A DNA stretch of 64,000 bases from a virus. Taxonomy: Duplodnaviria; Heunggongvirae; Uroviricota; Caudoviricetes. Both the position numbers and the translations under genes were made by a program. The notes under the pieces are model-generated. The model made no database searches. It had not been told where the DNA came from and saw nothing but the letters and a program-made list of their open reading frames with translations. The DNA lies in the IMG/VR virus record IMGVR_UViG_2721755651_000007, one strand, 5' to 3'. This document shows positions 3,614 to 60,015 of the stretch, piece after piece. The first letter of the stretch is position 1. Every line of letters starts with the position of its first letter.

Positions 3614-3769
3614 TTACTTCTCAGATTCGTAGTCTACGAAGACAGCGACCTCCGTCTGACCGGTTCGGATTCGCACCTCGCAGAGGTCTTTCCTCGTTAC
3701 CAGTGCCGTCACTATGACGGTTAAACAGATGACGATCAGGGCGATTAACATCGCCTTTTGCTGCTTCAT
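3614..3769 (-). CDS. hok: Hok-family type I toxin (HokD/RelF-like), with overlapping mok frame extending to 3826
   Basis: MKQQKAMLIALIVICLTVIVTALVTRKDLCEVRIRTGQTEVAVF matches Hok/Gef family; longer overlapping ORF 3614..3826 = mok-like. Confidence 0.9.
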   Translation of the reverse strand: MKQQKAMLIALIVICLTVIVTALVTRKDLCEVRIRTGQTEVAVFVDYESEK

Positions 3770-4059
3770 AGCCTGCTTCTCCTTGCCTTTCGGCACGTAA
3801 GAGGCTAACCTACATGTGTTCAGCATGGATTGAGCCTCAGATTAATGTTAAGCGTCTTGCAGGACGCGTAATGTTAACTGGGGCTTTTCTCTATCTGCCG
3901 TTGGTGTTCATGCCCGAGGCAGATAGCCTCAAGCACCCGCAGCAATTCTACTTAACTATCCTTTTCCCGCAAACCGTTTTTATCCCCAGCGGCAAATCGA
4001 ATACACCACCAGCGCCACCGCCATCGCAATTCCTACCGTTGTGAATGCTTCAGGCCAGG

Positions 4060-5598: not shown

Positions 5599-6489
5599 TC
5601 AGGCTGCCAGATCATCGTTTCCGATGGAAGCATAATAAGCTTTTTCTGCTTCTGCCGGAGGAGTATGGCCCAGCCTTCCCAGCAATCGTCGATTGTTATA
5701 CCAGTCCACCCACGTTAGTGTGGCCAGTTCCACTTCTGCACGGTTTTTCCAGCTCTTACGGTGTATTACCTCCGCTTTGTAAAGACCATTGATGCTCTCA
5801 GCCATCGCGTTGTCATACGAGTCGCCTGTACTCCCTGTTGATGCCAGTAATCCGGCTTCTTTTAGTCGCTCCGTATAGGCCAGTGACACATACTGAGAGC
5901 CTTTATCGCTGTGATGGATGGTGCCAGACGGACGACGGGCCCACAACGCCTGCTCCAGCGCATCCAGCACGAATGTCGTTTCCATAGACGATGAGACCCG
6001 CCACCCCACGATGTATCCGGCAAACACATCAATGATAAACGCCACATAGACGAAGCCCTGCCATGTGCTGACGTAAGTAAAATCAGCCACCCACAGCTGG
6101 TCAGGTCGTTCTGCCACGAACTGACGGTTTACGCGGTCGCCTGCGGCAACGGCTTTCCGGCTGATGGTCGTACGGACCTTTTTACCCCGGAGAACACCGG
6201 CAAGTCCCATAACCGCCATGAGACGTGCCACTGTACATCTGGCCACCCTGATTCCTTCCCGTAACAACTGACGCCAGACTTTACGCACACCGTACACCTG
6301 ATGATTTTCATCGTATACGCGCTGTATCTCTCTCTTCAGCCAGTCGTCGTGCTGCGCACGGGCACTGCGTTTATCCGGATGATGTCGCTGTTGCTGACAA
6401 TGGTAATACGTTGACGGGGCAATATGCAGTTCGCTGCATACCGGTCCGACCCCGTACTGCTCACGCAGCTTATCCAGCAGTGGCATCAT
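5599..6489 (-). CDS. IS3-family transposase OrfB (DDE integrase domain)
   Basis: 296 aa; WVADFTYV...HSDKGSQY...YDNAMAES motifs. Confidence 0.9.
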
Positions 6490-6812
6490 TTTTTCCAGAG
6501 GCGGTCGAACTCCGCCTTCGCAAAATAAGCGGAAGCCTGGCGAAGGATATCGTTACTGCGGCGCAGTTCACGATTTTCACGTTCCAGCTCTTTCAGACGC
6601 TGACGTTCAGCGCTGGTGAGCCCACCATCACCGCCCCCGGTATCCCGCTCATGCTGGCGAACCCAGACACGCAGAGTCTCCGGCGTACAGCCAATCTTTG
6701 GGGCAATGGAACAAATTGCCGCCCACTGTGAGTCATATTCATCCTGACTTTCCAGAACCATACGAATCGCCCGCTGACGGACTTCGGGGGAAAAACGAGT
6801 ATTTTTAGTCAT
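6486..6812 (-). CDS. IS3-family transposase OrfA (HTH)
   Basis: 108 aa; overlaps orfB as expected for -1 frameshift fusion. Confidence 0.9.
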
Positions 6813-57177: not shown

Positions 57178-57585
57178 ATGAAAAACGAAACCTTCGGTGC
57201 TCGCCTCTTATACAGGCGAAAAAAATTAAAACTGTCTCAGGCCGCATTAGGTAAGCTGGTCAAAGTGGCTCACGTAACAATTTCTCAATGGGAAAGAGAT
57301 GAAACACAGCCAGCGGGGAAGAGATTATTCGCACTGAGCCAGGCGCTTCAGTGCTCGCCGACTTGGCTTCTTTTTGGAGATGAAGATAAGCAACCAGGCG
57401 AACCGATCCCAGATAATCAGCCAGTCAATCTGACAGAAGATCAAAAAGAGTTGCTTCAACTGTTCGACGCACTGCCTGAGTCAGAGCAAAAGGCTCTGTT
57501 GTCAGAGATGCGTGCTCGAGTTGAGAATTTCAACAAACTTTTTGAAGAACTACTCAAAGCTCGCAAAAGAAGCGCAAATAAATAA
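57178..57585 (+). CDS. dicA: DicA-like repressor (HTH, no peptidase domain)
   Basis: 135 aa; ...SQWERDETQPAGKRLFALSQALQCSPTWLLFGDEDKQP...EMRARVENFNKLFEELLKAR. Confidence 0.85.
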   Translation: MKNETFGARLLYRRKKLKLSQAALGKLVKVAHVTISQWERDETQPAGKRLFALSQALQCSPTWLLFGDEDKQPGEPIPDNQPVNLTEDQKELLQLFDALPESEQKALLSEMRARVENFNKLFEELLKARKRSANK

Positions 57586-58220: not shown

Positions 58221-58439
58221 ATGCAGAAACGAGACCCCGTCATCATCGCGCCAGACTATACCGATGATGAACTTTATGAGTGGATGCACCAGAAAATTAA
58301 GGCGGTGCAGGACCTGAAATGGGCCAATGAAGCCAGGGCTAAGCAGGCTGAAAATCTGTCCGCTCTGGAGCAGGATATCACCAATCTGGAAAAAGCAGCG
58401 GCATTAAGCATTGCCAGAATGATTACATACCCACGTTAA
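58221..58439 (+). CDS. hypothetical coiled-coil protein
   Basis: 72 aa ORF. Confidence 0.35.
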   Translation: MQKRDPVIIAPDYTDDELYEWMHQKIKAVQDLKWANEARAKQAENLSALEQDITNLEKAAALSIARMITYPR

Positions 58440-58461: not shown

Positions 58462-58869
58462 ATGGAATTTAAAGATTTACCAACGCCATTACAGGAAATG
58501 GCATCGAATATAGTTCGTTCACAACTGGCTACTCTTGACCTTAGTACCGCAGAAAAAGAAACCATCGATAATATGGTTCGTAATGTGCGCAATGCTTTTT
58601 CTGGGCTATATGGTTCTGATAATCAAAAGCAGGAAAGCGATGTTAATAAACGGGTAATTTCTGTTTGCGTGAATGGCCATGTTCTTTCATCAATCAAAAC
58701 AGAAACGGCGACAGTCTTCGATTGCCTTTGCATTGTACAGAGCCTTGTTGATGCCCTGTTTCGTTCAGTGAATTTAGAAAATGATGCAAATCTGCGAGGG
58801 CGCATAATAGCACATCCATATGCACATACTTTAGGCTCTGTGGATATCAAAGATCCCACAAATCTTTAA
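58462..58869 (+). CDS. hypothetical early protein with conserved N-terminal module and unique C-terminal domain
   Basis: MEFKDLPTPLQE...DNMVRNVRNAFSGLY shared with 11274..11912 product. Confidence 0.45.
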   Translation: MEFKDLPTPLQEMASNIVRSQLATLDLSTAEKETIDNMVRNVRNAFSGLYGSDNQKQESDVNKRVISVCVNGHVLSSIKTETATVFDCLCIVQSLVDALFRSVNLENDANLRGRIIAHPYAHTLGSVDIKDPTNL

Positions 58870-59413
58870 TGAAATAGTTAACGCGAATTGTACTTGCTCT
58901 TTCGGTTGCTTTCAGAATACGCGTTGAAACTGCTGGCGGTAATTTGGTATTCCATTTATTAAAATCATGCCCGGGAAAGTACTCTTCGAAAATACTTTTA
59001 ACTGCAGACTCGCCTATTGAAATGCTGCTTACCATGCGATTTTGATAAAGGCATTTAGCAATAAGAGTTGATTTTAACATTCACCCTCCTGAGGGTTGGT
59101 AATTAAGGAGTTCTCCACGGGTGAAGTGGAGTGCGTGCGCCGGACACGGGTGAACATCCGGCACTGACAGTTTACTGAAAGGATATTTCTCTGAAAAGTC
59201 AGAGCATAACGCGAAAGCGCACGGCGAGGTTGCTGGTTCATAGATAGCCTGTCGTTAAATTTTCGTCGACCGTGCGCTTCCGGTTGTGGCACTCCGCGAA
59301 ATGGCGCAGCGGTAAGTATGGCGGGGTTATTCCTTCCCCGTTGAGGACACCGGGTTGTCAGGTTGACCATACGCTTAAGTGACAACCCCGCTGCAACGCC
59401 CTCTGTTATCAAT

Positions 59414-59466
59414 TTTCTGGTGACGTTTGGCGGCATCTGTTTGCCCATGAACTGATGTCCGCCCTT
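59414..59466 (+). ncRNA. dicF: DicF-like small RNA, divergent 3' half
   Basis: TTTCTGGTGACGTTTGGCGG identical to DicF 5' end; different stem-loop ending ...GATGTCCGCCC + T-run; upstream of dicB. Confidence 0.7.
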
Positions 59467-59638
59467 TTTAAAGTGAATTTTGTGATGCAGTGAATGCGGC
59501 TAAGCGCACGCGGAACAGTTAAAGCTAAAAACAGTGTTATGGGTGGATTCTCTGTATCCGGCGTTAATTGTTAACTGGTTAACGTCACCTGGAGGCACCA
59601 GGCACCGCATCACAAAATTCATTGTTGAGGACGCGATA

Positions 59639-59827
59639 ATGGAAACGTTATTACCAAACGTTAATACGTCTGAAGGTTGTTTTGAAATTGGTGTCACTAT
59701 CAGTAACCCTGTATTTACTGAAGATGCCATTAACAAGAGAAAACACGAACGGGAGTTATTAAATAAAATATGCATTCTTTCAATGCTGGCCCGTTTACGT
59801 CCGATACAAAAAGGATGCTGGCAATGA
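59639..59827 (+). CDS. dicB: DicB cell-division inhibitor
   Basis: METLLPNVNTSEGCFEIGVTISNPVFTEDAINKRK... Confidence 0.85.
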   Translation: METLLPNVNTSEGCFEIGVTISNPVFTEDAINKRKHERELLNKICILSMLARLRPIQKGCWQ

Positions 59828-60015
59828 ATACAGCATTTGCACTTGTTCTGACAGTTTTTCTTGTTTCCGGAGAGCCAGTTGATATTGCAGTCAGTGTTCA
59901 CAGGACAATGCAGGAGTGTGTGACTGCAGCAACCGAACAGAAAATTCCCGGTAACTGTTACCCTGTCGATAAAGTTATTCACCAGGATAATAACGAAATC
60001 CCGGCAGGTCTTTAA
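59824..60015 (+). CDS. ydfD: YdfD-like small protein
   Basis: 63 aa after dicB, hydrophobic N-terminus. Confidence 0.65.
   Translation: MNTAFALVLTVFLVSGEPVDIAVSVHRTMQECVTAATEQKIPGNCYPVDKVIHQDNNEIPAGL

Follow-up and report, generated by a model that had tools for sequence, protein, structure and literature searches.

Prophages of Escherichia coli encode small RNAs (sRNAs) in the leaders of their dicBF and kil operons. One of these RNAs, DicF (Rfam family RF00039; dicF, b1574, in the Qin prophage), lies in a lambdoid prophage operon that is controlled by dicA and has the order ydfABC-dicF-dicB-ydfD. DicF accumulates as an Hfq-dependent RNA of about 53 nt with a 5' end processed by RNase E, and the inhibition of division after which the gene is named goes with its complementarity to ftsZ; it is described as toxic when expressed and as a link between low oxygen and the virulence of EHEC. 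Pairing with the ribosome-binding site of ftsZ involves the 3' region of DicF and is lost in the mutant DicF9, and pairing with xylR involves the 5' end and is lost in the mutant DicF3, which also loses the regulation of pykA (Balasubramanian et al. 2016, PMC5069750). In a further mutant, DicF23, both ftsZ and pykA are affected (PMC5069750). DicF9 and DicF21 keep the regulation of xylR and lose that of ftsZ, which in DicF21 is accompanied by the loss of pykA regulation, and they cause neither filamentation nor a growth defect; moreover, ftsZ alone does not fully explain the toxicity of DicF (PMC5069750). The 3' end of DicF also pairs with manX (bioRxiv 10.1101/169359). According to secondary sources, DicF activates pchA by binding, within the coding region, to an anti-Shine-Dalgarno element. 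The expansion of dicF to four copies in EHEC and the accumulation of canonical DicF there under low oxygen are stated in reviews that cite Melson and Kendall 2019. Another sRNA of this kind, KilS, has been verified by Northern blot and detected in Hfq RIL-seq, and the paper that names it makes no mention of DicF (PMC8175672). Here, we describe a DicF-like sRNA gene, hereafter copy B, and compare it with these two RNAs. We consider it probable that copy B is a recombinant allele of DicF, with arms of KilS type and a loop of its own, which would act on part of the DicF target set. Copy B belongs to the known prophage sRNAs of the dicBF/kil leader, and the variant itself is new.

The window, which is the whole stretch of 64,000 nucleotides that was analysed, is colinear with positions 1752283-1816282 (reverse strand) of E. 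coli O157 strain 319 (NZ_CP018241.1). It contains two DicF-like loci, both on the plus strand. Copy A, at 12460-12517 including its U tract, is located in an early region of Sp11 type, and its equivalent in strain Sakai is upstream of ECs_2214, annotated as 'cell division inhibition protein'. Copy A is the one DicF that an Rfam scan of the window returned with more than the gathering score (12461-12512, +; 75 bits). Compared with dicF of K-12 (NC_000913, 1649382-1649434), copy A (12460-12512) differs by a single base, A39G. Its predicted fold comprises about 15 unpaired nucleotides at the 5' end, a hairpin and UUUUU, with an energy of -15.4 kcal/mol. The dicB gene that follows copy A occupies 12687-12875 (+), and ECs_2214 is found at the same 227-nt offset from dicF in Sakai.

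Copy B, at 59414-59469 (+), is carried by a prophage integrated at ompW. Its operon is headed by a gene for a DicA-like helix-turn-helix repressor (57178-57585, +), which is followed by a hypothetical gene, ydfC (58221-58439, +), an ORF of 135 amino acids (58462-58869), copy B, dicB (59639-59827, +) and a ydfD-like DUF1482 gene (59824-60015); the genes for an exonuclease, an excisionase and an integrase and then ompW complete the order. The position of ydfC is taken from the RefSeq annotation, and those of the repressor, dicB and DUF1482 genes are taken from the RefSeq annotation (for dicB, that of the colinear strain 7636) together with the list of ORFs. Copy B is situated inside a long untranslated stretch downstream of ydfC and of the 135-aa ORF, which is the operon position of dicF in Qin.

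Some further features of the window can be noticed. Among the genomes listed for segments 1-22000 and 40000-64000, strain 319 is the only one with a single uninterrupted counterpart of the window. Strain 7636 has the left part (the early region of Sp11 and the end of Sp12, in the Sakai naming) about 360 kb away from the right part (the ompW prophage), which points to inter-prophage recombination or to an inversion in the lineage. A weak STnc100-like match was found at 59453-59600 (+), with 16.4 bits and E = 0.17. The element common to this match is the hairpin CACCUGGAGGCACCAGGCAC (59586-59606), just upstream of dicB, and the same motif is present in the bona fide STnc100 and upstream of dicB at copy A. 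STnc100 itself (46972-47180, -) belongs to a known EHEC prophage RNA island at 46911-47522, along with AgvB (anti-GcvB; 46911-46970, +) and the genes for tRNA-Arg and tRNA-Ile (47293-47522, -). Two hok/sok antitoxin RNA loci, one per prophage, and the ALIL frameshift pseudoknot of an IS3-family element account together for the segments 3764-3938, 52149-52298 and 6415-6531, all on the minus strand.

To compare the two copies, about 600 nt around each of them were aligned. With the exception of one island, the two loci are nearly identical over a stretch that begins about 160 nt before the RNA and ends about 230 nt after it, and 7 of 399 flanking positions differ (98.2% identity). The upstream flank, which contains the 5' end of DicF, is the same in both for about 90 nt. 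The island corresponds to segment 59434-59458 (+) in copy B and to segment 12480-12506 in copy A, and 16 of its 27 columns are divergent, a 2-nt deletion included. The binomial probability of such a divergence is about 9e-22 at the substitution rate of the flanks, so this block has been exchanged and not eroded by point mutation. On the 5' side of the block, the single-stranded region of DicF with the xylR-pairing seed UUUCUGGUGACGUUUGGCGG is conserved, 20 of 20 nucleotides being the same in copy B, copy A and K-12. A 19-nt motif from this region, TTCTGGTGACNTTTGGCGG, has two sites in the window, which are copies A and B, and none is expected from shuffled sequences. Thus the inner stem and loop of copy B are replaced, whereas its first 20 nt, the flank at the 5' end, the stem base, the U tract and the flank downstream are those of DicF. 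A permissive Rfam scan of 59300-59600 aligns copy B to DicF at 59415-59464 (+) with 43.5 bits and E = 1.6e-8, which is under the curated gathering score of 48 bits for RF00039.

The extent of copy B is supported by the Rfam match, by the fold and by the exact recurrence of the sequence in genomes. In the predicted structure, about 15 unpaired nucleotides that constitute the 5' single-stranded seed (59414-59428, +) are followed by a terminator hairpin (59429-59463, +) and by the U tract UUUUU (59465-59469, +). The fold has an energy of -17.3 kcal/mol, with z = -2.8 relative to shuffled sequences, and copy B thus has, like DicF, a Rho-independent terminator hairpin. The replaced block provides the inner stem and the loop (59439-59449). 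The arms of the hairpin, CATC..GATGT, are of KilS type, while the loop, TTTGCCCATGAA, is private to the copy B allele. According to the calculated energies, the hairpin would be somewhat more stable than the canonical one, and termination or the accessibility of the loop could be altered. A simple consensus terminator scan did not flag this hairpin because its stem is bulged. A sequence-only reading of the window had placed a DicF copy upstream of dicB and of a ydfD-like gene in both prophages, one canonical apart from a single base and the other retaining the first 20 nt and a terminator hairpin around a replaced central and 3' part, and the comparison bears this description out. The same reading had assigned copy B to 59414-59466; the feature stands, but this end position lies within the U tract, and the 3' terminus of the RNA is expected at about 59469.

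Hairpin arms like those of copy B are found in another RNA, KilS, which belongs to the 5' UTR of kilR. Some phage records matched the 3' part of the copy B query only, which led to the equivalent slot in Rac-like phages and from there to the Rac prophage of K-12, where RefSeq places kilS (b4833, 1418405-1418502, -) upstream of kilR. The 3' hairpin of KilS is composed of GGCGGCATCAG, a loop and CTGATGTCCGCCCTTTTT, followed by the flank AAAGTGAATTTTGTGATG; the hairpin of copy B is composed of GGCGGCATCTG, a loop and CTGATGTCCGCCCTTTTT, followed by the same flank. The arms GGCGGCATC and CTGATGTCCGCCCTTTTT of copy B are identical in kilS of K-12. When a hairpin of KilS type is defined by the arms GGCGGCATCNG ... 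CTGATGTCCGCCC, five U residues and the AAAGTGAATTTTGTGATG flank, the corresponding arms in copy B are GGCGGCATCTG ... CTGATGTCCGCCCTTTTTAAAGTGAATTTTGTGATG, and arms of this type are common to K-12 kilS and 40 IMG/VR haplotypes. Since KilS has identical arms and an identical downstream flank, copy B can be described as the 5' half of DicF joined to a stem of KilS type. The arms GGCGGCATC / CTGATGTCCGCCC, the U tract and the flank that follows it are common to the two RNAs, and both genes directly precede a division inhibitor gene, in equivalent slots of the early-left operon. However, the 5' region of KilS (...TGCTGTGTGTAGTCC) is longer and unlike that of copy B, the KilS loop is UUUUUUUCUUGAAGUUCGG, which also differs, and KilS precedes kilR, whereas copy B has the 5' region of DicF and precedes dicB. 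Two canonical DicF copies with the change T21C (loci L349 and L027) have the KilS-type 5' arm GGCGGCATCAG beside a canonical loop and 3' arm; they could be intermediates of recombination or could have arisen by a point change alone.

The slot alleles were collected from IMG/VR with four anchors, and this sample is biased by the search patterns and gives no frequencies. The 287 loci have 88 distinct alleles. At least four 5' regions are recurrent, namely the DicF type, the KilS type, the CATGTTGAT type and the GTGAAGTACC type. There are three types of stem, those of DicF, of KilS and of GGCGGGTATC/GATACCCGCC, and more than 10 loops. These elements are found in different combinations. The loop TTTAATTGCTGG is preceded by at least four distinct 5' regions, two types of stem are found with the CATGTTGAT 5' region, and in one locus (L309) the 5' region of KilS is joined to a stem of DicF type. 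All major slot alleles fold as a hairpin followed by a U tract. The DicF seed, in the slot alleles of IMG/VR, is coupled to two hairpins only, the canonical one and that of copy B. Two scans of IMG/VR for the DicF seed with a non-canonical hairpin returned copy B; the other hits were a chance match and the two canonical copies altered by a point change at position 21. Copy B is thus the sole alternative hairpin found on this seed in 2.9 million viral contigs. DicF and KilS are positional homologues in a family whose 5' regions, stems and loops reassort. The KilS-type hairpin and the placing of DicF, KilS and the other alleles in one modular family are two points that the sequence-only reading did not contain. 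A paper of 1994 had reportedly noted terminator sequences related to dicF in other prophages.

Of 5426 complete E. coli genomes, 290 (about 5%) carry a match of 100% identity to the 44-nt core of copy B. Most of these are O157:H7, and the others include O55:H7, O121 and O103. Copy B is found in EDL933 (NZ_CP008957.1, 1847266-1847321, -), in strain 86-24 and also in the type strain of E. albertii. Nearly all hosts belong to pathotypes that carry the LEE island. A sequencing or assembly artefact was ruled out, as the 290 independent complete genomes have the identical sequence. In O121, copy B is again carried by the ompW prophage, as in O157, while in the swine strain JP538 it is located in another prophage, with a different integrase, at tRNA-Ser/mtfA, behind ydfA-ydfB-ydfC. 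Copy B thus occurs in at least two different prophage backbones and is not a private mutation. In IMG/VR, 23 contigs with five flank haplotypes have the copy B block, in a dicF context every time, and the loop of copy B was likewise found in a dicF context only. Among 50,697 GenBank phage records, none has the block, and all full-length matches are of canonical type, with at most 91% identity to the copy B query. The canonical DicF core is present in 3823 of the 5426 complete E. coli genomes, at up to six places per genome. A scan of species-representative genomes with the 19-nt seed gave 36 loci, of which about two-thirds are chance matches in unrelated phyla; the real loci belong to Escherichia, Shigella and a few metagenome bins with dicF flanks of E. 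coli type.

RefSeq records produced by the NCBI pipeline have no annotation under copy B nor, in most cases, under canonical DicF, and the curated record of K-12 is the only one with an annotated dicF and kilS. As a consequence, the copy number of DicF cannot be read from standard annotation. An effect of the sub-threshold Rfam score on the annotation of copy B was considered and dropped, as the canonical copies are mostly unannotated too.

The pairing of the two copies with published targets was modelled from windowed RNAduplex energies and from opening energies derived from unpaired probabilities, with 40 shuffled sequences for each target. Full-length RNAduplex against targets of 125 nt had given over-extended, uninformative duplexes, and it was replaced by the windowed calculation. 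For canonical DicF and copy A, the published sites in ftsZ, pykA and xylR were recovered. The ftsZ duplex comprises nt 32-53 and positions -28 to -7 (-8.2 kcal/mol, reached by 4 of 40 shuffles), the pykA duplex nt 26-43 and positions -18 to +1 (-12.1 kcal/mol, 0 of 40), and the xylR duplex nt 6-15 and positions +11 to +20 (-11.6 kcal/mol, 0 of 40). Copy B pairs with xylR at the same site and with the same values (-11.6 kcal/mol, 0 of 40), and opening of the seed costs 0.3 kcal/mol. With ftsZ, the best duplex of copy B involves the 5' end and reaches -5.1 kcal/mol, which is at chance level (16 of 40 shuffles), so that the complementarity to the ribosome-binding site is gone. With pykA, the Shine-Dalgarno site is lost in copy B and the best duplex is formed by the 5' seed at +31 to +38 (-8.8 kcal/mol, 3 of 40). 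This last site is available to DicF as well, since nt 4-12 of its seed pair there with GUUACCAC at the same energy; such a second, seed-mediated pykA site, if the model is right, could explain the loss of pykA regulation in DicF3. The model also finds the manX site (nt 42-54 with +35 to +45), at a level no better than chance (35 of 40 shuffles); as this site is validated, the model can miss real interactions and has low sensitivity for sites buried in stems.

These differences correspond to the position of the replaced block. Within the block are the residues for pairing with the ribosome-binding site of ftsZ and with the Shine-Dalgarno region of pykA, as well as the 3' arm that pairs with manX, whose canonical residues GCUCUGCCGCCC are altered in copy B; the xylR seed is left untouched. 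A difference in target range, which the sequence-only reading had suggested, is in this way supported computationally and agrees with the published genetics. In addition, the loop of copy B, UUUGCCCAU, has a perfect 9-nt complement in the codons of pchB (ECs_2182) at +66 to +74, AUGGGCAAA, with a total energy of -7.3 kcal/mol. The pairing predictions for pchB comprise several weak, mutually exclusive sites and do not single out the published anti-Shine-Dalgarno interaction. We treat the match as a lead only; it could be due to chance and to the linkage of copy B to a prophage that carries effectors.

The reading that we prefer, that of a recombinant DicF allele, can be described as a series of steps. 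The inner stem and loop of a DicF gene would have been swapped for a hairpin with arms matching those of KilS, with the DicF seed, the base of the stem and the flanks kept. Copy B would be transcribed within the dicA-controlled operon ydfC...dicB, which is expected to be repressed by the DicA-like repressor in the lysogen. Transcription would stop at the hairpin and U tract of copy B itself, and the 5' end would be trimmed at the conserved upstream site, as in the processing of DicF by RNase E. The product would be an sRNA of Hfq type with a length of about 51-56 nt. Targets of xylR type should still be repressed through the unchanged 5' seed (nt 1-15). Since copy B has neither the ACUCCG anti-Shine-Dalgarno loop nor the CUGCUCUGCC arm, which serve ftsZ, pykA and manX in DicF, it should not repress ftsZ and probably does not repress pykA or manX, and no filamentation should follow. 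In the model, copy B would correspond, as a natural allele, to the separation-of-function mutants DicF9 and DicF21, with the same predicted behaviour of retained xylR regulation, lost ftsZ regulation and no filamentation. The difference is that the two mutants are laboratory substitutions of a few bases, whereas copy B is a natural exchange of a 25-nt module and its behaviour is a prediction. Some toxicity of copy B could persist through the 5' seed, because the toxicity of DicF exceeds its effect on ftsZ. We keep copy B apart from DicF proper because it lacks two defining properties, a score above the Rfam threshold and complementarity to ftsZ.

Three other explanations were weighed against this one. 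Copy B could be one of many interchangeable terminators of the early-left operon that arose by lambdoid recombination, which we hold to be possible though rather doubtful; the loop UUUGCCCAUGAAC would have no target of its own, and copy B, with the ftsZ/pykA/manX arm gone, would amount to a partial loss of function, to which we give the same doubtful standing. Every slot allele keeps a stable hairpin and a U tract while the loops vary freely, the borders of the block lie exactly within stretches common to all alleles, GGCGG and CCGCCCTTTTT, and no target specific to copy B was established in this analysis. However, the block is invariant, save for one bulge base, over five flank haplotypes, two backbones and two species, in a sample that is largely clonal. 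Moreover, the equivalent loop of canonical DicF is a proven target-binding site, and loops in the DicF scaffold can therefore be functional.

It is improbable that copy B is a silent relic, an unexpressed gene or one with an unstable RNA, which persists with the prophage only. The early-left operon is controlled by a DicA-like repressor, no expression data on the copy B allele were found in publications, and a full-text literature search for the block sequence returned no paper. Nevertheless, the upstream flank with the mapped 5' end of DicF is identical, the terminator and the downstream dicB are intact, and the reviews describe an accumulation of canonical DicF from operons of this type in EHEC at low oxygen. 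Finally, the private loop could have become a new seed for mRNAs beyond those of canonical DicF, such as the pch virulence regulators, and copy B would then gain a regulatory arm as well as lose one. This is very unlikely in spite of the perfect pchB match and the LEE pathotypes of the hosts, as a 9-mer match in one of five tested targets arises by chance with a probability of roughly a few percent (a rough estimate), an inner stem of 4 bp partly closes the loop and costs 4 kcal/mol to open, and the host association is accounted for by linkage to the effector-carrying ompW prophage.

The recombinant DicF allele bears on the number of DicF loci in EHEC. The O157 strains TR01 and FDAARGOS_293 have four places with the canonical core each, plus copy B. 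In an Rfam-based list for EDL933, the four DicF have lengths of 52, 52, 56 and 52 nt; the copy B match has 50 nt and is below the threshold. Copy B is therefore probably a fifth, uncounted DicF locus of EHEC. The coordinates of DicF_1-4 given by Neuhaus et al. for the old EDL933 assembly showed no correspondence with the current assembly; GCCCATGAACTGATG is the sequence by which the copy B type would be told apart among dicF1-4. A wider reading, which we put forward tentatively and with more doubt than confidence, is that the slot is a modular sRNA cassette exchanged among lambdoid prophages, and that copy B is an expressed fifth DicF of EHEC that splits the two arms of DicF regulation, maybe with new targets for its loop. 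If this were true, each prophage would have its own regulatory RNA, and copy B would separate the metabolic and virulence arm, which depends on the 5' seed, from the division-inhibition arm.

If copy B acts as predicted, the DicF-like regulators of O157 would be more numerous and more heterogeneous than the count in the literature, and strains deleted for "all four" copies may retain an RNA with a competent 5' seed. Copy B would also offer a natural separation-of-function allele, with which the phenotypes of DicF could be mapped to the halves of the RNA. Taken with KilS and the other alleles, copy B suggests that the sRNAs of this slot evolve by the exchange of modules and not by point mutation, and module exchange provides a testable model of how horizontally acquired sRNAs may change their targets.
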